From the NCBI GenBank assembly GCA_049510745.1, contig JBEKYR010000032.1:1-57644 (forward strand): a stretch of 57,644 nt of DNA. The letters are read 5' to 3'. Below the pieces are notes generated by a model. The model ran no database searches. It worked only from the letters and a program-made list of their open reading frames with translations, and was not told the origin of the DNA. Shown here in pieces: positions 8,552 through 57,644 of the stretch (positions within the stretch are counted from its first letter, which is position 1; each line of letters begins with the position of its first letter). The position numbers and the translations under genes are program-made. The stretch comes from Verrucomicrobiota bacterium. Its GTDB lineage: Bacteria; Verrucomicrobiota; Verrucomicrobiia; Limisphaerales; Palsa-1400.

Positions 8552-8661
8552 GCCATACGGATTGCTTCGAGGGGTGCGAACCCCGAAATGTCCCTGCCGG
8601 GACTGGCCCTGTCGTGTTTTGCACAGGAAGTTCTTACCGCATATTCGGGTAACAATTCCCC

Positions 8662-10899
8662 TCAGTTGAATCCCATCAATCGGCCGCCTTGGTAGGTGAC
8701 AAACGCAAAAACCCAGGCCAACGCCCCCATATAGACCCATTGGAAGAGAGGCCACTTCCAGGAATTGGTTTCCCGGCGCACCACCGCCACCGTGCTTACG
8801 CATTGCAGGGCAAGGACATAGAAAACCATCAGTGCCACCGCCGTCAGTGTCGTATAAACCGGCCTACCGTCCGGCCGCTTTTGCTGCCGCATGACTTCCG
8901 CCAAATCCCGCGTGTGCGTGTCCTCATCGGTCCCCTCGCCGACGTTATAGACAATGGACATGGTGCTGACAAACACCTCGCGCGCGGCGAAGGAGGAGAC
9001 GATGCCGATGCCCATCTTCCAATCGAATCCCAGCGGGGCGATGAGCGGTTCGAGCAAATGGCCCGCCTTTCCGGCGAAACTCCCGCGCAACCGCTCGCCC
9101 GCCGCGGCGGCGCTGGATGGCGCCGGTTTGCCGGCTGGCCGCTCCGCCGCTTCGTGCCGGGGATAGCTGGCCAGGAACCAGAGCAGAATGTTGATGCCCA
9201 AAATCACCGTGCCGGCGCGGCGCAGGAATAATCTTGAGCGGTCCCACATGTGGCGGAGGACGATTTTCAAAAGGGGCCGTTTGTAGGGCGGCAACTCCAT
9301 GACCAGCATCGGCGTCTCGCCTTTGAGCAGCGTTTTCTTGAACACCCACGCCATGCCCAGCGCCACCGCGATGCCCAGCAAATACATGCTTAACATCGTC
9401 ACGGTTTCCGCGGCCAGCCGCCCCGGCAGGCAGGCCGCGATCAAGAGCGTGTACACCGGCAGCCGCGCCGAACAACTCATCAGCGGCGCCACCAGGATCG
9501 TGACCAGGCGGTCTTTGGGCGTTTCAATGGTCCGTGTGGCCATGATGCCGGGAATGGCGCAGGCGAACGAACTGAGCATCGGAATGAAACTTTTGCCGTG
9601 CAACCCCACTTTGCTCATCAGCCGGTCCATCAGAAACGCCGCGCGCGCCATGTAACCGGTGTCCTCCAGCAGCCCGATGAACAGGAACAGCAGGCAAATC
9701 TGCGGCAGAAACACCACCACCGCCCCCACTCCCTGGATCACTCCCTTGACCAGCAGCGCCTGCAAGTCCCCCGGCGGGATCTGCCGTCCGACGAAATCCC
9801 CCAGCGCGCGGAACAATCCCTGCAACAAATCCATCGGCACCTGCGCCAGGCTGAAGATCGACAAAAACATCACCGCCATGATGCCGACGAAAATCGCCAT
9901 TCCCCAAATTTTATGGGTGACAATGCGGTCGATCTGGTCGCTGAAGGTCTCCTCCGGCCCGCCCGCTTCGGTCGTCACCGCTCTCTGAATGGCCGCCACC
10001 CGGCTGTAACGCGCTTCAATCGCCGCACTGCGCCAATCGATTCCCGCGCTTTCCAACCGCTGCCGCCCGCCGGCGACCGCCTGGCGGACAGAGGCCGGAT
10101 ACTGCGCCGGGGAGGAGGCGCCAGGTTTTTCGTCGCACAGAAGCAGCAGCGCCTCGATTCGGCGCGGCGCGGCAGGCTGGCCCCCCAGGCCGGCCAGCGC
10201 GCTTGCCACCGCGTCGATCTCGGCCTCGAAGTCCGGCGGCAGGGCGCAAAAAGAGCGCGGCGCCGCGGGCGGCCTCCCGGCGCGGATGGTTTGGATGATG
10301 GCTTGTTGCAGGTCGCGGAGGCCTTCGCCCGTGCTGGCCACCATCGGGACCACCGCCACTCCCAGCGCCTGGCCGAGCTGGCCGGCGTCGATGTGGTGGC
10401 CGATCTTCTCCGCCACATCGGCCATGTTCAAAGCGATGACCGTTGGATAGCCCAGTTCAATGACCTGGGTGGCGAAGTAAAGATTGCGTTCCAGGTTCGA
10501 GGCATCGACCACCACCACGACCGCCGCCGGCGCCGGAACCTCGGGCAGCCGCTGCAACAGGACATCGCGGGCAATCTGCTCATCCAGCGATTGCGGACTG
10601 AGGCTGTAGGCGCCCGGAAGGTCCAGCACCGTCAAAGGGAGGTCGCCGGGAGCGCCCTGGAAACGGCCCTCCCGCCGCTCGACCGTGACCCCGGCGTAGT
10701 TGCCTACCCGCGCCCGCAACCCGGTCAAGGCGTTGAAGACCGTGGTTTTGCCTGAATTGGGATTGCCGGTCAGAACGACGCTGCGGGAAGCGACCCGCAG
10801 AGGGGAAGACTTGGGGCCTGCGGGCGGAGGGGCGGCCGGGAATTGAGACTGAGTCTCAACTGTCCCGGCGCGACCTTCCACTTTCGACTGCGGTTCCAT
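8662..10899 (-). CDS. feoB: Ferrous iron transporter B
   Basis: G1 GNPNSGKT, G2 VGNYAGVTVE, G3 DLPGAYSL, G4 NMAD, gate/TM domain (LEDTGYMARAAF, SCSARLP). Start uncertain (10899 or 10947). Confidence 0.96.
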   Translation of the reverse strand: MEPQSKVEGRAGTVETQSQFPAAPPPAGPKSSPLRVASRSVVLTGNPNSGKTTVFNALTGLRARVGNYAGVTVERREGRFQGAPGDLPLTVLDLPGAYSLSPQSLDEQIARDVLLQRLPEVPAPAAVVVVVDASNLERNLYFATQVIELGYPTVIALNMADVAEKIGHHIDAGQLGQALGVAVVPMVASTGEGLRDLQQAIIQTIRAGRPPAAPRSFCALPPDFEAEIDAVASALAGLGGQPAAPRRIEALLLLCDEKPGASSPAQYPASVRQAVAGGRQRLESAGIDWRSAAIEARYSRVAAIQRAVTTEAGGPEETFSDQIDRIVTHKIWGMAIFVGIMAVMFLSIFSLAQVPMDLLQGLFRALGDFVGRQIPPGDLQALLVKGVIQGVGAVVVFLPQICLLFLFIGLLEDTGYMARAAFLMDRLMSKVGLHGKSFIPMLSSFACAIPGIMATRTIETPKDRLVTILVAPLMSCSARLPVYTLLIAACLPGRLAAETVTMLSMYLLGIAVALGMAWVFKKTLLKGETPMLVMELPPYKRPLLKIVLRHMWDRSRLFLRRAGTVILGINILLWFLASYPRHEAAERPAGKPAPSSAAAAGERLRGSFAGKAGHLLEPLIAPLGFDWKMGIGIVSSFAAREVFVSTMSIVYNVGEGTDEDTHTRDLAEVMRQQKRPDGRPVYTTLTAVALMVFYVLALQCVSTVAVVRRETNSWKWPLFQWVYMGALAWVFAFVTYQGGRLMGFN
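10843..10859. promoter_or_regulatory. Perfect 8-1-8 palindrome, candidate iron-regulator operator inside the 5' end of feoB
   Basis: TTGAGACT-G-AGTCTCAA; a near copy overlaps the feoA promoter. Confidence 0.55.
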
Positions 10900-39220: not shown

Positions 39221-39445
39221 ATGAGCACAGTGACCGAAATTCAGGACGCGATTGACAAGCTTTCCGGCAAGGAAAAGACCGCTTTGGCCGCTTGGCTCGA
39301 ATCGCGAGAAACACCGTTCATGTCCCCGGAAGAGGAGGAGGTGCTGCTTTCCCGGCTTGACCAAGCCAGCGTGGAACTGGATGCGGGCAAAGGAGTTTCC
39401 TTGGAACGGGTGCGAACCCTGGTTACGAAATGGGCTACAAGGTAA
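39221..39445 (+). CDS. Addiction-module antitoxin
   Basis: MSTVTEIQDAIDKLS..ELDAGKGVSLE; overlaps the downstream toxin. Confidence 0.75.
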   Translation: MSTVTEIQDAIDKLSGKEKTALAAWLESRETPFMSPEEEEVLLSRLDQASVELDAGKGVSLERVRTLVTKWATR

Positions 39446-39720
39446 ACTTCGCCCCACAGGCCCTCCAACGGCTCGAGGAAATCGTCCGCGTCATCGCCAA
39501 AGATAATCCTCCGGCAGCGGAAAAGTTCGGACTCCGTCTGGTGGATCGCACCGTTTTGCTGGCGGACTTCCCTGAATTGGGCCGTCCCTACCGCAAACGC
39601 GAAGGAGTTCGGCGGTTGTGGTGTCGTCCCTATTGGGTTTACTATCGTATCCAACCAGAAAGACACGTCGTCGAGATCATGGATTTCTGGCATTCGGCGC
39701 GACGCGACTCGGAGTTCTAA
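39430..39720 (+). CDS. RelE/ParE-family toxin
   Basis: YKVNFAPQA..LEEI..IAKDNPPAA, LADFPELGR, YWVYYRI, FWHSAR. Confidence 0.88.
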   Translation: MGYKVNFAPQALQRLEEIVRVIAKDNPPAAEKFGLRLVDRTVLLADFPELGRPYRKREGVRRLWCRPYWVYYRIQPERHVVEIMDFWHSARRDSEF

Positions 39721-42546: not shown

Positions 42547-42583
42547 AGCATACCCGCATTCCGGCTTTCAATGCGGGTATGCT
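42547..42583. repeat. Perfect 14-bp inverted repeat
   Basis: AGCATACCCGCATT-ccggctttc-AATGCGGGTATGCT. Confidence 0.8.
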
Positions 42584-42677
42584 CAATTTCGCATTTTTTC
42601 CCCCCCCATCACTGAGGCATTACGCAAAAATGGATTGCAGTCTTGATAATTCGGCTGCGCGGGGTTATACGTTTCGT

Positions 42678-42920
42678 ATGGTCATAGCGTCCATACGCGA
42701 GTTCAATCGCGCGGTGCCTTTCAAGCCGTACGAAATCCGCATGGTCAGCAGCCAGCGTTACAAGGTGCCGCATCCGGATTTTATTTCGATTTCGCCCAAA
42801 GGTTCGTTTGTGATTCTCTTTGACGCCGATGAAAGCCCGCATCATCTCAGTTCACTGCTGATCGAAAGCGTTTCACCGCGCAACGGCCGGCCCGCGCGCA
42901 AAGGCGGCCGGCGCCCATAG
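42678..42920 (+). CDS. Small hypothetical protein (PFKPY..VPHPDF)
   Basis: 80-aa ORF preceded by TTGATA-17 nt-TATACG, 6 nt before the ATG. Confidence 0.65.
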   Translation: MVIASIREFNRAVPFKPYEIRMVSSQRYKVPHPDFISISPKGSFVILFDADESPHHLSSLLIESVSPRNGRPARKGGRRP

Positions 42921-43052
42921 CCCGTGACGGCGCGAACCGGGGAAAGTTCCCCCACTCGGACGCCAATCCTCCCGCAGGACGGCTGATGGGGCGCGGAGAA
43001 TTACGAAATTGCGCTTGCCACGCCTCCCGGCATCCTGTATATACAAATATGT

Positions 43053-43298
43053 ATGCAAACGACATATCCCATCCGCCTGGATGAAGGCGACAAGCGGCTT
43101 TTCAAACAAGCCGCTCGCTCGGCGGGCCTCTCCCTGGCTGAGTTCCTCCGTCGAGCAGCGCGGGAAAAGGCGAAACCGGCGAAGAAAGAACCCGCCTGCC
43201 TCACTTACCCGGAGATTCAGGTCGATCGGGAAGCGGAAGCCCACCCCAAAGAGTTCATACGAAACCAACTCGCCCTCAGAAATGGACGCCATCGCTGA
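43053..43298 (+). CDS. RHH-type antitoxin (VapB-like)
   Basis: MQTTYPIRL..KRLFKQAARSAGLSLAEFLRRAA; overlaps the PIN toxin. Promoter TTGCCA-17 nt-TATATA with a TGTATATACA palindrome. Confidence 0.75.
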   Translation: MQTTYPIRLDEGDKRLFKQAARSAGLSLAEFLRRAAREKAKPAKKEPACLTYPEIQVDREAEAHPKEFIRNQLALRNGRHR

Positions 43299-43683
43299 CA
43301 CCGGGTTCATCGTCGCTATCTGGTCCAAAACCCCCGCGCGCCGCCAGTGGGCGCGGGCCTGGCTCGGCAAAGTCACGCTGCCCCTTCTGACCTCGACCGC
43401 CACTCTGCAAGAGGCCGGCTGGCTCTTAAACAATCACTCTTACCCGATCCAAATGGTATTGGACGGCGATTTGGAAATTGCTCTCGACACTCAAGCAGAG
43501 GCCAACGCCCTGCACGGGTTGATTTCCAAATACCGGGATCGCATGGATTTGGCCGATGCCTCCATCGTGCGCCTCTCGGAACTTCATCCCCGCGCCAAAG
43601 TCCTGACGGTGGACAAAGCCGACTTCAAGATTTACCGGCGATTTGGCCGCGAGCCTATTCCCTGCGAATTCCCGCCCGCCTAG
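43282..43683 (+). CDS. vapC: PIN-domain toxin (VapC)
   Basis: IADTGFIVA, TLQEA, MDLADASIV, LTVDKADFKIYR. Confidence 0.88.
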   Translation: MDAIADTGFIVAIWSKTPARRQWARAWLGKVTLPLLTSTATLQEAGWLLNNHSYPIQMVLDGDLEIALDTQAEANALHGLISKYRDRMDLADASIVRLSELHPRAKVLTVDKADFKIYRRFGREPIPCEFPPA

Positions 43684-46374: not shown

Positions 46375-46656
46375 ATGAAGACCGATACGTATCCGTTGGC
46401 CGTGCCGCCCGATCTGCTCGGGGAGGTGCGCCAGGCGTCTCAGGATTTGGGTTTGTCCATGGCAGACATCATGCGGCAGAGCATGAAGCTGGGGTTGCCC
46501 AAACTGCGCGAGCAGTTGTCGCCCGATCCGCTAAAAAACCTGAAGCCGTTGTCGAGAGCGGAGTCCCGCCGTTGCTACCAGCAACCGAACCGCGAATTTG
46601 ACGCGCTGGAACATCACCTCGCCGGCTTGCCCTCTCCGCCCCCGGACGCGGAATGA
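46375..46656 (+). CDS. RHH-like antitoxin
   Basis: YPLAVPPDLLGEVRQAS..LSMADIMRQSMKLG; ATGA overlap with the toxin. Promoter TTGACA-16 nt-TAGGAT. Confidence 0.75.
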   Translation: MKTDTYPLAVPPDLLGEVRQASQDLGLSMADIMRQSMKLGLPKLREQLSPDPLKNLKPLSRAESRRCYQQPNREFDALEHHLAGLPSPPPDAE

Positions 46657-46976
46657 AAGCCTGGGACATATTTAGCTGGCAGGCTCCCGGCTGGCCGGAG
46701 CCGCATCCGGTGGTCATTGTGTCCCACCCGGACCGGGTTGCCAACAAACCGGACGTGACGATAATAATGTGCGCTTCGCGAAGGGCCACCCGGCAACCGG
46801 AACCCAACGAGGTGGTTCTCGATGCCAACGACGGCTTGGATTGGCCGACCCTGTGCAAGTGTGACCTGCTCTACACCATCCAAAAAGCGAATCTGGTGAA
46901 TCGCCGTGGGGCAGTCAGCGCCGAGCGCAGGAGGCAGATCATCGCGACGATCAATCGCGTCAATGGTTGGCTTTGA
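46653..46976 (+). CDS. mazF: PemK/MazF-family toxin
   Basis: WDIF..PHPVVIVS, EVVLD..DGLDWPTLCKCDLLYTIQK..RRGAVS. Confidence 0.8.
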   Translation: MKAWDIFSWQAPGWPEPHPVVIVSHPDRVANKPDVTIIMCASRRATRQPEPNEVVLDANDGLDWPTLCKCDLLYTIQKANLVNRRGAVSAERRRQIIATINRVNGWL

Positions 46977-49547: not shown

Positions 49548-50912
49548 ATGAATGCCGTCCTGGATTACATCGACCGGAACAAAGACCGATTTGTTGACGA
49601 ACTGTGCCAGTATCTTCGCTTTCCCAGCGTGTCCGCCCAGCCGGAGCATCGCCCCGACATGACGGCGTGCGCGGAGTGGCTGGCCGCGCATTGCCGCGGA
49701 ATCGGTTTGGAGGCGCGGGTGTGCCCGACGTCCGGCCACCCGGTGGTGGTCGCCAGCACGCCGCGCACCGCCAGGCCGCATTACGTCGTCTATGGACATT
49801 ATGATGTACAGCCGCCGGAGCCGTTCGAGCTGTGGAAAAGTCCGCCCTTCGAGCCCCGGCGGGAGGGGCGCTCGGTCTTTGCGCGCGGGGCGTGCGACAA
49901 CAAGGGCCAGAATCTGGCGCACCTCAAAGCCGTCGAGGCTTATCTCAAGACCAATACCGATCTTCCCTGCGACCTGACCTTCGTGATCGAAGGCGAGGAG
50001 GAGGTGGGCAGCAGGAATCTGCAATCCTTCCTCCAAACCCATCGCCGGGAACTGGCCTGCCGCGCCATTGTCATTTCCGACACCGGCATGCCGAGCTTGA
50101 AACATCCGGCCCTGACCTACGCGTTGCGCGGCATCCTGGCTTGCGAGGTCACCCTGCGCGGGCCGTCGCGCGATTTGCATTCGGGCATTTTTGGCGGCAC
50201 GGTGGACAATCCGGCCCTGGCTCTCTGCCAGATGCTCGCCCAATTGCGCGACAAAAAAGGGCGCGTCAACATCCCCGGTTTTTACGACGATGTCGCCGCG
50301 CTCTCCGCCTATGAACGCGCGCAGGCGGCGCGCATTCCGATGACGGCCGCGCAATACCGCAAGTTCCTGGGCGTGCCCCGCCTCTTTGGCGAAAGCGGCT
50401 TCACGTTCGTGGAACAGCGCAGCGCGCGCCCGACCATCGAGATCAACGGCTTGACCAGCGGTTACCAGAGAGAAGGCAGCAAGACCATCATTCCCTCCTC
50501 CGCCACGGCCAAGCTGACTTTCCGCCTCGTGCCAAACCAGCGCCCGGACCGCATCAGGAAACTGGTTTTGCGGCGATTGAAAGAGCTGTGTCCGCCGACG
50601 GTGAAACTGGAGGCATGGGCCGGCCACGGCGCGGAGCCGTATCTGGTGTCGCCAACCAGCCCGCTGGCCCAAGCGGCGTTGCGGACGCTGCGCGCGGCCT
50701 TTGGACACGAGCCGATCCTGATGCGCGAAGGGGGAAGCATCCCAATCGTCACGCAGTTCAAGAAAATCTTGCGCGCCGATTCGCTCTTGCTCGGCCTGGC
50801 CCTGCCGGATGACAACGCCCATTCGCCAAACGAAAAATTCAGCCTGGATTGCTTTGAGGGCGGGATCCGGATGGGGGCGCTGTTGTGGCCGGAGCTGGCG
50901 AAGCTTCACTGA
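49548..50912 (+). CDS. M20-family dipeptidase
   Basis: YGHYDVQP, ARGACDNKG, EGEEEVGS, DLHSG, GGSIP, NAHSPNE. Confidence 0.92.
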   Translation: MNAVLDYIDRNKDRFVDELCQYLRFPSVSAQPEHRPDMTACAEWLAAHCRGIGLEARVCPTSGHPVVVASTPRTARPHYVVYGHYDVQPPEPFELWKSPPFEPRREGRSVFARGACDNKGQNLAHLKAVEAYLKTNTDLPCDLTFVIEGEEEVGSRNLQSFLQTHRRELACRAIVISDTGMPSLKHPALTYALRGILACEVTLRGPSRDLHSGIFGGTVDNPALALCQMLAQLRDKKGRVNIPGFYDDVAALSAYERAQAARIPMTAAQYRKFLGVPRLFGESGFTFVEQRSARPTIEINGLTSGYQREGSKTIIPSSATAKLTFRLVPNQRPDRIRKLVLRRLKELCPPTVKLEAWAGHGAEPYLVSPTSPLAQAALRTLRAAFGHEPILMREGGSIPIVTQFKKILRADSLLLGLALPDDNAHSPNEKFSLDCFEGGIRMGALLWPELAKLH

Positions 50913-51514
50913 AGCGGTATCTTCAACAGTTCCTCGGTCGTTTCCGGGCCGGGATGCGATTCGGCGCGGGCGGCCTTGACCAGGGCGGGGTCGATGTCCG
51001 CGGCTTTGTTGTCCCCCAATCTGCTGCGGATGTAGGTCAACACGGCAGCGAGATGCTCGTCGTCGAAATTGTCGCGCCATGGCGGCATGGTGAGGTTCCA
51101 ATCCTGGCCTTTGACGGTGATGGGCCCGGTCAAGCCATTTAAAACCACGCGCGCGATGCGGCCGCCGCCGGGCGCCAGCACCCACTCCGAACCGACCAGC
51201 GGCGGCGCGACGCCCTCTTTGCCCAGGCCGGTGAGCTGATGGCAGGCGGCGCACGTCTTCTCGAAAACCTCCCGGCCCATGGCCCGTTTCCTGGCTCCGG
51301 GGTCTTGCGGGTTGACGGCGGCCACCTGCTCAAAGGATCGGTACGGCGCGTAAACGGCGGCATTGAAGCCGCCGGCGTGTCCGTCAAGATAGAGTTGACT
51401 CCAATAAAACAGGCCGCCGAAGACGACGATCAGCCAGAGCGGAACGGCCGCAAAACCCGCGACCGGCTCGGCGCCGTTCTTTTGCACAGCTTGTTTTGGG
51501 TCGTTGGGGCTCAT
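50906..51514 (-). CDS. Membrane-anchored monoheme cytochrome c
   Basis: TM helix, CAACH, PPLVGSEWV, axial Met in LTMPPW. Confidence 0.9.
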   Translation of the reverse strand: MSPNDPKQAVQKNGAEPVAGFAAVPLWLIVVFGGLFYWSQLYLDGHAGGFNAAVYAPYRSFEQVAAVNPQDPGARKRAMGREVFEKTCAACHQLTGLGKEGVAPPLVGSEWVLAPGGGRIARVVLNGLTGPITVKGQDWNLTMPPWRDNFDDEHLAAVLTYIRSRLGDNKAADIDPALVKAARAESHPGPETTEELLKIPLQ

Positions 51515-52185
51515 TTGGCGGCGGTCTTGGCGCGGACCGGGGCGGCGTTCGTTTGGAGCGGCGGCGGCGGCGCTTCAAAGAGGTATCCCTCCTGCCGCAG
51601 GCTCAACAAGTAGGCGGCCAGCGCCAGGGCTTGCGGGCGCGGCACAACTTCGTAACCGGCCGCCGGGGCAATCTCAGACGGCAACACGAGCGCGTCGCGT
51701 GACGGGAATTGCTGAATTTTCCGAGTGTCAAACAAATAACGGTAGCTGGGCATGATCGATCCGGGAGTGATCAATGGCGGATCGTAGAGGCGCAGCAAAA
51801 CTCCGATCAGGTCGGTGCGCCGGCCATAGTTGGACAAATCCGGCCCGATGCGTTGCGCCCCCAGCATCACCGGTTGGTCGAAGAGATAATCCTCGGCCAG
51901 GCTGCGGCGCGCGCCCCAGCCGCGGTGCAGGTCCGAGCCGAGTTCCAGCGGCCGGACCATTTCGGTGTGGCAGGCGGCGCAGCCGTTGGCGCGATAGACT
52001 TCGGCGCCTTGCCGGGCCGCGCCGGGTTGCGCCAGAGGGTAGGTTTGGGGCGAGGCCTCGCCCACGACAACCGTATTGGTTTGCGTCAGGTGGCCGATTT
52101 GCAGTTGCGGCCCCAAAACAAAGCTCAGCCAGGAGCAGGCCATCGTCACGAACAATCCCAGAAACAGCAGCGGGCCGCTGTTCAT
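51511..52185 (-). CDS. cbb3-type oxidase subunit II-like monoheme cytochrome (CcoO-like)
   Basis: GAEVYRANGCAACHTEMVR, RIGPDL, PGSIMPSY. Confidence 0.85.
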   Translation of the reverse strand: MNSGPLLFLGLFVTMACSWLSFVLGPQLQIGHLTQTNTVVVGEASPQTYPLAQPGAARQGAEVYRANGCAACHTEMVRPLELGSDLHRGWGARRSLAEDYLFDQPVMLGAQRIGPDLSNYGRRTDLIGVLLRLYDPPLITPGSIMPSYRYLFDTRKIQQFPSRDALVLPSEIAPAAGYEVVPRPQALALAAYLLSLRQEGYLFEAPPPPLQTNAAPVRAKTAAK

Positions 52186-53633
52186 GCGCCCTCCTTTGGT
52201 TTTGCCGATGGAAAGGCGGCACAATACCGGCAGCAGGCGCGCGCCAGGAGGCGGGCAAAGTTGAGCAGGAAAAGGATGGTTCCCACGACGACGCACAGGT
52301 CTCCCAACGTGCTCACGCGCAGGGGAAACATCGTGTTTTTCATCACTTCCGGGAAGGTGTGCCGCGGGTCCGCCAGCAGGATTCCCTGGCCGACGCCGCA
52401 GACCAGAAGGGACAGGCAGGAAATGAGCACGCCGAGAAACGTCAAGTAGAAATGGGCTTTGACCAGCCGCGGACACCAGGCGCTTTCCTCCAATTCGAGC
52501 AGGCGCGGGACGATGTAATAGAACGCGCCAAAAATGCTCAGGGCGAAAAAGCCGCAATGGAACATTTCCTTTTGCGCCGCGCCGAACCAGGTGAAACCGG
52601 TGATCGCGCTGACGTTAGGCAGCGCCCCGGCGATCTGCTGCGCGCCGGCGATGAACCAGAACATCAGCCCCACGTAGGTGAAGCGCAACGTGGGGTTGGC
52701 ATCGAGCGCGTTGAGGTCGTGGCGGACGGTTTGGCAGAAATTGGCCGCCACGGCCAGGAGCGGGACCGCCGTCATCACGGTGCCCACCACGCCCAGGCTG
52801 ACAATCCAGGAAGGCAGGGGAGCGCCCTCGGGAATTCCGCCCCAACTGCCGAACAGGGCCAGCGTCCAGAACGCCAGCGCCGCCAGGTAATAACTGTGCA
52901 GCGGCCGTCCCAGCAGTTTCGGAATGAAATAAAAAACCGGCGCCAGCCCGGCAAAGCCCAGGAAGACCGTGCTCAGGTTCCGGGCGTACCACCAGGCGAT
53001 CAACGGTTGGAGCACCCCGCGCGCCGGCCTCTCCAGCAACAGCAGCGCGGCGGTGGAAAAAATCCAGGGAAACCAGAAAATCGATCCGAGGACAAACCAT
53101 TGCGACGGATAGAGGCGGCCTTCCTGGCGCTGATGAAAGGTGAGCAGACCGCAGACGCCAATCATAAGATAGGCCGCAAAGAGCATGGGCGCGCAATACG
53201 CCGGCATTTCAAAGGCGTCGTACCCGGTGCTGTCGCCGCAAAGAATGGCGGCAATGCCGATGGTGAGAGCGAGGTTCCAGAAAAACGTGCCCAGCAGCAC
53301 GACGCACGGGCCGGCCAGACTGGCGCGGCCCAGGCGGCAGAGCAACCAAAGTCCAACCCCGAGCGCGGCCAGCACGCCGAACCCATAAAGCAAGGCGGCG
53401 CTTTGGGCGGCGTGAACGCGCCCGTAGGTCCAATACGGCTGGCCGGCCAGAAAATCCGGAGCGTGAAACTTGAGCGACGCGATCAAGCCCAGCAGCGACG
53501 CCACCAGCAGCCAAAGCACCGAAGCGCCAATCAGGTAGAGGAACGGCGCCGGGCATGATTTCCCGGTTTCAGCCGGCGGAGTCTGCGGCGAAACGAGCGG
53601 AGCCGCGGGCGCTGGAGAAGGGGTCGCGCTCAT
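52182..53633 (-). CDS. cbb3-type oxidase subunit I-like protein lacking canonical His ligands (CcoN-like)
   Basis: Multi-TM protein colinear with CcoN (TYGR, WWY.N, YFIPK..RP..SY.L..FW, HF.L..G) but with the ligand His positions substituted. Confidence 0.85.
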   Translation of the reverse strand: MSATPSPAPAAPLVSPQTPPAETGKSCPAPFLYLIGASVLWLLVASLLGLIASLKFHAPDFLAGQPYWTYGRVHAAQSAALLYGFGVLAALGVGLWLLCRLGRASLAGPCVVLLGTFFWNLALTIGIAAILCGDSTGYDAFEMPAYCAPMLFAAYLMIGVCGLLTFHQRQEGRLYPSQWFVLGSIFWFPWIFSTAALLLLERPARGVLQPLIAWWYARNLSTVFLGFAGLAPVFYFIPKLLGRPLHSYYLAALAFWTLALFGSWGGIPEGAPLPSWIVSLGVVGTVMTAVPLLAVAANFCQTVRHDLNALDANPTLRFTYVGLMFWFIAGAQQIAGALPNVSAITGFTWFGAAQKEMFHCGFFALSIFGAFYYIVPRLLELEESAWCPRLVKAHFYLTFLGVLISCLSLLVCGVGQGILLADPRHTFPEVMKNTMFPLRVSTLGDLCVVVGTILFLLNFARLLARACCRYCAAFPSAKPKEGA

Positions 53634-53645
53634 GGCCGGGACAGC

Positions 53646-54023
53646 CTATTCGTATTCATTCTTCTTTTCCGGCGGCTTGGGGGCGGGGGCGAATTCACGG
53701 GCCGCGCGGGCCATCAGGTTGGAGCGGCCGGCCGCCGGGTCCTGCCACTCTTGCAGCATCAATACCTTGGCCCGCTCAACCGGGACGCGGACGAACCCCC
53801 TGGCCTGGTCCTGCCAATCATATTTTTCCAGCAGCGGCGCGTTGGCCGCCTTGAACTCGGCCAGGATTTGCTTCCGTTCGGCGGCGCGGCTTTCCGCCAG
53901 CGACGGCGCTGTGGTGTAGGATTGCATCAGCCAGACCAGCAGCGCCATAACCAGGAACGTCCCCAAAAGGCCCAGGACGTACGCGCCGCGGCGGGATTTT
54001 TGACAGCAGGATTCCGGATTCAT
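53646..54023 (-). CDS. ACIII small subunit (ActG-like)
   Basis: Single TM and YDWQDQARGFVRVPVERA; follows actF. Confidence 0.65.
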   Translation of the reverse strand: MNPESCCQKSRRGAYVLGLLGTFLVMALLVWLMQSYTTAPSLAESRAAERKQILAEFKAANAPLLEKYDWQDQARGFVRVPVERAKVLMLQEWQDPAAGRSNLMARAAREFAPAPKPPEKKNEYE

Positions 54024-55267: not shown

Positions 55268-55933
55268 CTATTTCTTAAACTGCGAGCGATAGGGATCGGG
55301 CACGTCCTCGACCGTTGCCAGTTGGCTTCGCTCCAGCGCCCGCACGTAGGCGATGATGGCCCAGCGGTCCTCGACGGCGACGTTTGGCCCGTAAGCGCCC
55401 ATCAGGTTTTTGCCCTGGGTTATGGTGTTAAAAATTTCGCCGTCGGCCATGTCGATGAGCCGTTTGTCATGGAAATTGGCCATGGAAAACATGTTGTATT
55501 TGCTGGTGATTCCTTTGCCGTCGCCGGCCGGGCCGTGGCAGGGCTGGCAATTGATCTGGTAACGCTCCTGCCCGCGCTCCAGCAATTGCCGCGTGATGGG
55601 CAGCGGGTTGATCGGCGTCCAATTGGTCGTTCCCGCAATCCGTCCCGTGTTGACCGGAGAATCTTCGTAGGGATAAACCGGTTTCCCATCGACGGTGAGG
55701 ACTTCGCCGTTGAGCCGATACGGGCCGCTCCGGGCCACCGTGTTGGCGGGGATGAGGCGCGACGACCATTGATCTGGGAAAAAATCGCTCGGCGTCTGCG
55801 GGCGCACCTTGTTTTGGCGCACCATGTCGGGAAATAACTCGATGGGCGGCCGGCGCGAGTGGCTGCCGCGCAACCCGCAGATGCCCGCCAGCGCCAGGCC
55901 GCTGACGGCGAAGATGAGGAGAAAGTAGCGCAT
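55268..55933 (-). CDS. actE: Alternative complex III monoheme cytochrome c subunit E
   Basis: PDMVRQNK, RGQERYQINCQPCHG, DGEIFNTIT.GKNLM, DRWAIIAYVRAL. Confidence 0.88.
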   Translation of the reverse strand: MRYFLLIFAVSGLALAGICGLRGSHSRRPPIELFPDMVRQNKVRPQTPSDFFPDQWSSRLIPANTVARSGPYRLNGEVLTVDGKPVYPYEDSPVNTGRIAGTTNWTPINPLPITRQLLERGQERYQINCQPCHGPAGDGKGITSKYNMFSMANFHDKRLIDMADGEIFNTITQGKNLMGAYGPNVAVEDRWAIIAYVRALERSQLATVEDVPDPYRSQFKK

Positions 55934-56463
55934 TATTCCTCCACCATTTCGATGTGCCGGCTGCCCAAAGTTTCGAGGAGCTGGCGGGTTTCCTGCTCGG
56001 AGTAGATCGGGTCGGTTGTTTCTATCACCACGAAAAAGCGGTCGTGCGTGGCCAGGGCAAAGCGCCGGTTCTTGAGCAGCGGATGATGCAAACGCGGAAG
56101 GCGGTTGAGAAACAGCATGCCCAGCAACGCGCCGAACGCTCCGAACAAAATGGTCAGCTCATACGACGGCGGAAACGCGGCGAACGGGCTGAACATCGGT
56201 TTGCCCCCGATGACGATGCGATAATCGACCGCGTTCATAAACCAGATCATCAGCATGCCCGTGGCGTAACCGGTGCATCCGCCAATGAAGGAAAACCATC
56301 CCACCTTCGAGTTCTTGATCCCCATGGCGCTGTCCATGCCGTGAATCGGGAAGGGCGTGAACACGTCCCACTGCCGGAAGCCGGCATCGCGCACTTTCTC
56401 GGCCGCGCGTAGCGTGGCCGCGGGCGTCTCAAATTCCGCCATGATGGCGTAAGAGGCCGGCAT
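55933..56463 (-). CDS. actD: Alternative complex III subunit D (DUF3341)
   Basis: AEFETP, DVFTPFPIHG, IGGKP, YELTILF, THDRFFVVI. Confidence 0.9.
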   Translation of the reverse strand: MPASYAIMAEFETPAATLRAAEKVRDAGFRQWDVFTPFPIHGMDSAMGIKNSKVGWFSFIGGCTGYATGMLMIWFMNAVDYRIVIGGKPMFSPFAAFPPSYELTILFGAFGALLGMLFLNRLPRLHHPLLKNRRFALATHDRFFVVIETTDPIYSEQETRQLLETLGSRHIEMVEE

Positions 56464-57644
56464 CAGTGTCCCTCCCCAACTTTTGCCCCGCCCAACGGAT
56501 GGTGCGGGTCGGCTTGTGGTGTCACTCCCTTGACCTCCGCGATGGCGATCAATGGAATGTAGCGCAGGAACAACAGGAAAAACGTGAAGAACAGTCCAAA
56601 CGTCCCCAGATACTGCAGGATGTCCACCCACGTCGGCCCGTAATAACCCCAGTTGGCCGGCAGAAACTCCCGGTGCAGCGACGTGATGACAATGACGAAT
56701 CGCTCAAACCACATCCCGACGTTGACCAGGATCGAAAGGACGAACACTGTCAACATGCTGGTGCGGACTTTCTTGAACCAGAAAAACTGCGGCACCACCA
56801 CGTTGCAAGTCACCATGGTCCAGAAGGCCCACCAATATGGCGCGGCCGGCACGTGGAACAGCGGCCCAAGGATGAACGGGTCCGCCGCGCGGTTTTGCAG
56901 GAAAAGGAATCGCTCGTATGGATTGCCGCTGTACCAGGCGATGAAAAATTCCATGCCGTAGGCGTAGCCGACAATCGACCCCGTGGCCAGGGTCACCTTG
57001 CACATCAATTCGACGTGCCGCACGGTGATGATCTCCTCCAGCTTGAGCATGCGGCGCAACGGCACCAACAGTGTCAGCACCATGCCGAAACCGGAATAGA
57101 CCGCCCCCGCCACAAAGTAGGGCGGGAAAATCGTCGTGTGCCAGCCGGGCAACTGAGACACGGAGAAGTCCAGGGACACGATGGAGTGGACGGAGAGCAC
57201 CAGCGGCGTGGAGAGGCCGGCCAAAATGAGGTAAGCCTTCTCGTAATTGCTCCAGTGCCGGTTCGAGCCGGTCCAACCCAGGGCGAAGAGGCCGTAGGAG
57301 AATTTGCGAATCTTCGTCCTGGCCCGGTCCCGCATCACCGCCAGGTCGGGGATCAAGCCCATGTACCAAAAGAGCACCGAGACCGTGAAATAAGTCGAGA
57401 CGGCAAAGACGTCCCACATCAAGGGAGAGCGGAATTGCGGCCAGATGCCGTTGGAATTGGGAACGGGGAACAGCCACCAGCCATACCAAATGCGTCCGAT
57501 GTGAATCAGCGGAAAAACGCCCGCGCACATCACGGCGAAGATCGTCATCGCCTCGGCCGCGCGGTTGATCGACGTGCGCCAGCGCTGGCGCAGCAGAAAC
57601 AAAATCGCCGAGATGAGCGTGCCGGCGTGGCCGATGCCGATCCA
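56463..57644 (-). CDS. actC: Alternative complex III subunit C (NrfD family), 5' part beyond the window
   Basis: [77 protein letters not shown]. Confidence 0.93.

Follow-up and report, generated by a model that had tools for sequence, protein, structure and literature searches.

The 57,644-nt stretch analysed here (the window; contig JBEKYR010000032.1 of assembly GCA_049510745.1, from a Verrucomicrobiota bacterium) carries genes of an alternative complex III (ACIII), actC to actG, followed by three genes encoding a CcoN-like protein, a CcoO-like cytochrome and a monohaem cytochrome c (abbreviated N, O and c). The CcoN-like gene is real and conserved, and its product is almost certainly not an oxidase. 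It descends from subunit I of an ACIII-linked cbb3-type oxidase, has lost the six His ligands, the cross-link Tyr and the accompanying ccoS gene, and is maintained in its operon position under purifying selection; the same loss has occurred repeatedly. Judged from its sequence, the protein falls outside the cbb3 family on every catalytic feature, although it descends from it. A strong case can be made that ligand-less CcoN proteins act as a scaffold for the cytochrome outlet of ACIII, and we favour, with less assurance, the more specific reading that this scaffold is free of cofactors and would hold the CcoO-like and c552-type cytochromes through which electrons leave ACIII, mainly towards a CuA oxidase.

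When the protein was aligned to solved CcoN chains (3mk7_A, 9g6b_A and 8smr_E) and to the intact CcoN of its own genome, the six His positions were occupied by Q77, R218, P268, E269, Q354 and E356, of which E269 adjoins a two-residue deletion in the alignment to solved CcoN. The His pair of low-spin haem b is replaced by Q77 and E356, the haem b3 ligand by Q354, and the three CuB ligands by R218, P268 and E269. The initial annotation had deduced the loss of all six ligands from four motif swaps relative to canonical CcoN; all four swaps were correct and the loss was confirmed by these alignments. The Tyr of helix VII, present in 86 of 87 intact proteins and in none of 40 ligand-less ones, is G262 here, and R57 is also replaced. 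A Thr, a Ser and a Tyr that are invariant in intact orthologues correspond to G226, A251 and W326, positions that are variable among ligand-less forms and that we take to be proton-channel residues. The possibility of an ion path, also raised in the initial annotation, is unsupported by these replacements.

The predicted structure (pLDDT 89.9) contained 12 long helices and superposed best on CcoN (TM 0.86-0.87), the value for NorB (3o0r_B) being 0.79. The protein does not qualify as a NorB, which has six His and the FeB Glu, as its His ligands are gone and its fold is nearer to CcoN. With the curated ccoN model it scored 128.5 bits against a cut-off of 583; as intact ACIII-type orthologues (225-254 bits) also fall short, this failure alone is not decisive. 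Matches in the ESM Atlas were restricted to COX1-family clusters, mostly from Verrucomicrobiota. Sequencing error as the cause of ligand loss was excluded, as Logan contigs of an independent run covered the entire gene with identical letters.

Intact operons contain a small ORF, ccoS (Pfam FixS), mostly directly upstream of N; in the window, the slot that holds ccoS in most intact orthologous operons is a 12-nt spacer between the ActG and CcoN-like genes. Of 90 intact loci, 88 carry ccoS as detected by a hidden Markov model, against none of 41 ligand-less loci, window included; the two intact loci without it both begin at a contig end. Presence of ccoS and ligand state agreed in 11/11 independent pairs (p about 0.001). 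Because the model was seeded from intact loci (78 ORFs, plus the own ccoS of the window genome), the test was repeated on new loci, with ccoS found in 6/6 intact and 0/33 ligand-less ones (L214 dropped). Loci L005 and L214 were left out of the counts as other oxidase types, and 80 loci came from one pattern favouring intact forms, so that ratios of intact to ligand-less loci are not prevalences. The view of the initial annotation that the fold is catalytically dead is therefore strongly supported, ligands, Tyr and ccoS all being gone.

According to passages of PMC8267372 and PMC5742617, CcoS is required for haems b and b3 as well as CuB, and without it CcoNOQP assembles yet is inactive. This precedent supports the notion that a cofactor-free N may still be able to hold cytochromes. 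In two genomes (loci L205-L208) the N of the ACIII operon is ligand-less although an intact ccoS-N-O-c-ccoI copy stands free elsewhere, a coexistence that points to a retained role tied to ACIII. The intact operons of L205 and L207 (G335:C18 and G337:C19) belong to the ACIII-type subfamily, and no act gene was detected in the fetched stretch. An upstream ccoS is a simple marker by which real oxidase copies can be separated from the rest.

Elsewhere in the class, other families retain the six His and the Tyr in the gene found at the corresponding operon position, for example in named records of Opitutaceae, Chthoniobacterales and Puniceicoccaceae. The seven positions read HHYHHHH in, among others, Opitutaceae bacterium EW11 (L118) and Verrucomicrobia bacterium IMCC26134 (L122). 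In three genomes (G051, G063 and G213) the intact gene of the ACIII operon is the only haem-copper subunit found, and the ancestor was therefore very likely, on this genomic evidence, a working ACIII-coupled cbb3-type oxidase.

Ligand-less forms were scattered over a tree of the ActC-D-E-F operon (FastTree, 103 of 130 loci plus the window, some genomes present twice), with 11 changes of ligand state, a count that recombination or hidden paralogy could inflate. A first gene tree (LG+G4, long branches kept) joined the ligand-less Opitutales-type proteins with those of the window's own order and gave three changes. A gene tree obtained under a mixture model with the ligand columns removed gave four, after dropping 10 rows (three outgroups and seven long ligand-less rows). 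A single origin of the ligand-less forms was rejected by the approximately unbiased test (p = 3.9e-11). The former ligand sites carry different residues in each lineage. Since repeated regain of seven residues is implausible, the changes are read as losses, and the ligands would have been lost at least four separate times, each time with N, O and c kept. Two loci with ccoS still present, L065 (HRYHHHH, one CuB His changed to Arg) and L055 (HHSHHHH, Tyr changed to Ser), possibly represent early stages of loss.

The ligand-less family is broad. Among 8000 scored candidates 660 homologues were found. The query and the 129 full-length proteins among the 150 representatives at 50% identity make up 130 rows; none or one of the six His is present in 115 of these, and all six in only three. 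In relatives of the same order the gene was present in 19 of 20 fetched loci, with the order actF-actG-N-O-c in 19/19 and the six His in 0/19, so that the synteny check proposed in the initial annotation gave a preserved module. A broader profile matched in 136 of 151 genomes of the order, some of these matches being canonical ccoNO. One locus of the same order (L260, G331:C16) has a different type of ACIII operon that lacks the N-O-c module: directly after actA-G come sco, a coxB containing a haem c motif, coxA and coxC.

Both cytochromes of the module retain CxxCH and the axial Met, as had been noted at the outset. All PDB profile matches of the CcoO-like protein were CcoO. The 202-aa cytochrome c carries an N-terminal hydrophobic anchor. 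Among PDB profiles it matched best the cytochrome c domain tethered in Cu nitrite reductase (E 4e-40), followed by cytochrome c552 (E 7e-30) and, more weakly, CcoP (E 1e-20); in these matches, its haem domain resembles electron donors to copper centres. Cytochrome c552 feeds the CuA of ba3 oxidase. Across ligand-less loci, CxxCH was found in 38/40 CcoO-like proteins and 38/39 cytochromes c, and the Met in 35/40 and 38/39, respectively. In four clean cases among the 150 representatives, and in locus L265, the ligand-less N is fused to its own CcoO. Elsewhere in the window genome, a stand-alone paralogue of the c552-type cytochrome (57% identity, with a different N-terminal part, which is coiled) is encoded at C7:36121-36882 on the minus strand, and a weaker one lies on C21 near 8571-8912. 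In two other loci (L033:9008-9817 and L042:8360-9202), the place of actG, immediately upstream of the ligand-less N, is taken by an extra monohaem cytochrome c ORF of 269-280 aa.

In the mechanism that we propose from these data, quinol would be oxidised at ActC and electrons would exit through ActA/ActE (PMC5928083). The empty N, devoid of cofactors in vivo and bound to ACIII, would anchor the CcoO-like and c552-type cytochromes beside this exit, and the two c haems would relay the electrons outwards to the CuA of a separately encoded aa3/caa3 oxidase. In its widest form, to which we give only slightly better than even chances, the proposal states that Verrucomicrobiota repeatedly (4 to about 11 times) disabled an ACIII-coupled cbb3 oxidase through deletion of ccoS and all metal ligands, and that the empty subunit is now obligatory in a larger ACIII (Act-N*-O-c), through whose two c haems electrons leave for aa3/caa3 oxidases and other copper enzymes.

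Candidate acceptors are encoded outside the operon. No oxidase gene follows the module in the window, in agreement with the initial annotation, but the genome search proposed there found both an intact ccoN and a coxA. The window genome (94% complete) encodes, on contig C36, an intact ccoNO-Q-P operon with ccoG/H/I/S and, on C16, an A-family coxA/C/B in which subunit II carries the CuA motif and lacks a fused haem c; it also has a bd oxidase. Where the ligand-less gene was read directly (62 genomes), an A-family subunit I was present in 58, many of them assigned by score only, a count that leaves out 13 further ligand-less genomes. Subunit II of 18 ligand-less genomes was checked for the CuA motif, which all 18 contained. 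In the 12 genomes read from f20, the family of the verrucomicrobial methanotrophs, and in L045, L033 and L039, coxA-C-B lies directly after the module. As separate observations, weak second COX1-family matches (E 1e-8 to 1e-14) were obtained in L005, L130 and L131 (G023:C352, G174:C34 and G210:C1) and in G138:C8, adjoining a divergent haem-copper subunit I of 567-575 aa and a small CuA-type subunit II; these may possibly be another ligand-poor haem-copper homologue. At C21:3560-7025 (minus strand), a cluster includes a regulator of the FNR/CRP type, small domains of unknown type and a membrane protein; the last of these matches COX1 only weakly and in part (E 1e-8) and is not an oxidase subunit.

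Several observations weigh against the proposal, of which the identity of the acceptor, which we infer, is the weakest link. In four genomes (G274, G279, G292 and G305; 93-98% complete, in 90-380 contigs) the ligand-less gene lies in a full ACIII operon and no A-family subunit I or CuA domain was found, so that a CuA oxidase cannot be the sole reason for retention of the module, unless its genes are unassembled. Adjacency of cox genes is not specific to ligand loss, because coxA also follows operons with an intact N (L026, L040 and L047). Likewise, many genomes with an intact N also hold an A-family oxidase, and its co-occurrence is therefore weak evidence. In Rhodothermus, ActE donates directly to caa3 (PMC5928083), and an extra wire is not obviously needed. 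Finally, the N-O fusions may be single-base errors at the 4-nt overlap of the two genes.

The strongest rival, which we consider unlikely though worth weighing, keeps the same scaffold but makes it a general route for electrons out of (or into) ACIII, with periplasmic partners other than oxygen enzymes, for instance nitrite, NO or N2O reductases, being served no less than a CuA oxidase. It would account for the four genomes in which the module is kept and a CuA oxidase was not found, among which strong NrfA-family matches were found in G279 (with three in-frame stops) and G292, and in G279 the only other haem-copper protein is a 745-aa sequence with six His and no Tyr. The top solved match of the c domain, the donor domain of copper nitrite reductase, also fits, as do N2O-reductase genes reported within a methanotroph ACIII cluster (10.1101/2024.01.15.574570). 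Against it stand the A-family oxidase in 58 of the 62 ligand-less genomes counted above, its location in the same operon in three families and the fragmented state of the four exceptional assemblies.

A new chemistry or transport function, such as a relocated metal site or an ion or gas path, is improbable. The initial annotation had pointed to shifted His residues (RVH, H74; MFHC, H359) that might rebuild a binuclear centre. Among close homologues, H74 is His in 103/121, H359 in 95/121 and both in 82/121, frequencies that count against a passive scaffold, and the fold and many polar residues (Y235, N298 and S247) are retained. However, both are His in only 1 of 130 representatives, so that such a site is unsupported family-wide, and a lineage-specific one appears unlikely from the sequences. 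In addition, the old ligand positions differ by lineage and the equivalents of T226, S251 and Y326 are lost. Of 147 columns invariant in 87 intact orthologues, 57 are still conserved in 40 ligand-less proteins; these are mostly Gly, Pro, Trp and aromatic helix-packing residues, whereas the ligands, the Tyr, R57 and the three polar residues are relaxed, and no new conserved polar column was found among the 40. Packing residues kept without any new polar column argue against catalysis and against an ion path.

Two further explanations have very little chance of being correct. The ligand-less protein could regulate the canonical cbb3 oxidase encoded by ccoNO on C36 or be its inactive partner, for example in a heterodimer, as the window genome and many relatives carry both genes. 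Nevertheless, no intact ccoN was found in any of 15 genomes of family f20 (TIGR00780, best 45.7 bits, against the range given above for intact ACIII-type proteins), in 12 of which the ligand-less gene was read, and the heterodimer was rejected on this basis; three further genomes (G026, G014 and G222) hold only an A-family oxidase beside the ligand-less gene. The second, to which we give equally low odds, is a decaying relic carried within the operon. Selection is about three-fold relaxed relative to intact orthologues, branches are long, some copies are very divergent (L259, 24% identity), and that of L014 is split by a frameshift. The ratio of non-synonymous to synonymous substitution rates (dN/dS), calculated with an NG86 script, was nonetheless far below 1: it was 0.23 and 0.16 for the window gene against two congeners, and 0.10-0.32 in nine ligand-less pairs versus 0.05-0.11 in eight intact pairs, although several dS values are near saturation and one pair is saturated. 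In the same pairs, values for the CcoN-like gene were similar to those for ActF, the CcoO-like protein and the cytochrome c. The frame is open at full length in 18 of the 19 same-order relatives, with identities down to 22-35%, and the homologues run to the hundreds. Selection on the ligand-less N is therefore relaxed yet clearly purifying. The initial annotation had allowed that orthologues might keep the His residues and that this copy might simply be decaying; the first part held true, as intact orthologues do keep them, whereas decay is contradicted by these ratios and by the large ligand-less family. A still active cbb3 oxygen reductase, the label used in database source names and in papers on related organisms, has practically no chance with no ligand, no Tyr, no ccoS and 128 bits on the ccoN model.

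The ligand-free branch also has consequences for genome-based physiology. Verrucomicrobial methanotrophs are credited with a high-affinity cbb3 oxidase in PMC8498564, PMC6688271, PMC10205796 and 10.1101/2024.01.15.574570, three of which place the oxidase beside ACIII. This credit was compared at the level of the family. In Methylacidiphilum sp. Yel (L045) the seven positions read SEFSHFV and ccoS is absent, and family f20 groups with this record on the operon tree. The one f20 genome examined in this respect contains three other haem-copper subunits, of B- and A-family types, plus a fourth. Some bacteria credited with a cbb3 oxidase thus probably lack one, as far as their sequences tell. Under the widest form of the proposal, verrucomicrobial methanotrophs would have no cbb3 oxidase, and their high affinity for O2 would come from ba3/aa3 enzymes. 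Database source names label ligand-less homologues as cbb3 subunit I, and the credits of these papers stand against a family in which no intact ccoN was found in any of 15 genomes. In the haem-copper superfamily the six His count as nearly universal (PMC11214002), and a ligand-free branch is for that reason unexpected. A branch that is large, under selection and repeatedly evolved would point to an unrecognised structural role in ACIII supercomplexes, and as cultured members with the ligand-less and with the intact form exist, the question is directly testable.

The genes of the locus are listed in Table 1.

Table 1. Genes of the ACIII operon and its convergent neighbour, with positions in the window
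Feature	Position	Strand	Evidence or remark
ActC, 3' part	56463..57644	-	truncated by contig end
ActD, 176 aa	55933..56463	-	Pfam ActD E 5e-65
ActE, 221-aa monohaem cytochrome c; probably donates electrons to module	55268..55933	-	operon position; exit-haem role from PMC5928083
ActF, 414 aa	54020..55264	-	PDB 6lod_F, 6f0k_F E<1e-54
ActG, 125 aa	53646..54023	-	profile match to PDB 8k9e_G, E 2e-4
Ligand-less CcoN (pseudo-oxidase subunit I), 483 aa, 12 long helices	52182..53633	-	
CcoO-like membrane-anchored monohaem cytochrome c, 224 aa, C69xxC72H73 and M145	51511..52185	-	Pfam FixO E 2e-20
Monohaem cytochrome c, 202 aa, CcoP position, c552-type haem domain, C88xxC91H92 and M143	50906..51514	-	
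Convergent M20 peptidase gene, closes operon, outside module	49548..50912	+	

As described initially, the ORFs follow one another on the minus strand with minimal gaps, the spacers being of 12 nt or replaced by overlaps of 4 nt, and the stop of the cytochrome c gene overlaps the convergent M20 gene by 7 nt. The remaining ACIII genes, actA, actB and the 5' part of actC, were found on contig C18, which overlaps the end of the window by an exact 30 nt; the arrangement actA-B-C-D-E-F(-G) typical of ACIII is thus present across the two contigs, and complete clusters occur in relatives. The last ~570 nt of C18 (91010-91583) are only 81% identical to window positions 57079-57644 and lie further from congeners; this tail is probably a chimeric contig end and not part of another ACIII operon. 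In L217-L223, L212 and L262, a set that includes the second genus of family f20, a separate actD went undetected; the 652-aa ActC of L262 suggests an ActC-ActD fusion there. A scan of the locus for promoters and terminators gave nothing informative. Three small two-gene pairs elsewhere in the window (39241-39720, 42579-43683 and 46375-46976) resemble toxin-antitoxin modules, with RelE/ParE-like, PIN-like and MazF-like features.

A literature search, with most subscription papers beyond its reach, did not find a description of a ligand-less CcoN, and comparison was made with the nearest known systems. With CcoN of cbb3 oxidases (3mk7_A, 9g6b_A, 8smr_E and 6xkw_n) the window protein shares the 12-helix fold (TM 0.85-0.87) and is colinear, and in both cases a CcoO homologue and a third c-type cytochrome follow. 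It differs in the absence of the six His, the Tyr, R57, the three channel-type residues and ccoS, and the third cytochrome is a monohaem c552-type protein instead of the dihaem CcoP. Opitutaceae and other Verrucomicrobiota have a direct orthologue in their ACIII-linked C-type oxidase, noted by Refojo et al. (2010; cited in PMC8498564); it lies in the same slot after actG, with the same O and c partners and 34-39% identity. Copies of this type keep all ligands and ccoS, whereas those of the window and of Methylacidiphilum sp. Yel do not.

The ccoS mutants of Rhodobacter capsulatus, in which CcoNOQP was assembled but inactive (Koch 2000 and Kulajta 2006, as cited in PMC8267372 and PMC5742617), offer a laboratory counterpart. 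There, a cofactor-free CcoN still assembles with its c-type cytochromes, as a scaffold role would require; however, this is a state without known use, whereas the window-type state is fixed, selected and has arisen repeatedly.

In the ACIII-aa3/caa3 supercomplexes of Rhodothermus marinus (PMC5928083) and Flavobacterium johnsoniae (via PMC8361435), c haems wire ACIII to an A-family oxidase, and ActF is described as a cofactor-free paralogue of ActC without a quinol site (PMC5928083). In these complexes, the link is ActE or a domain of ActA, and the structures include no dead oxidase subunit. Divergent haem-copper families (gNOR, eNOR, sNOR, NOD and others) likewise combine an altered active site with the same scaffold, but their metal site is kept (PMC11214002). 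Within that account no family before gNOR had replaced so much as a single active-site His, whereas the window-type protein has lost all its ligand His.

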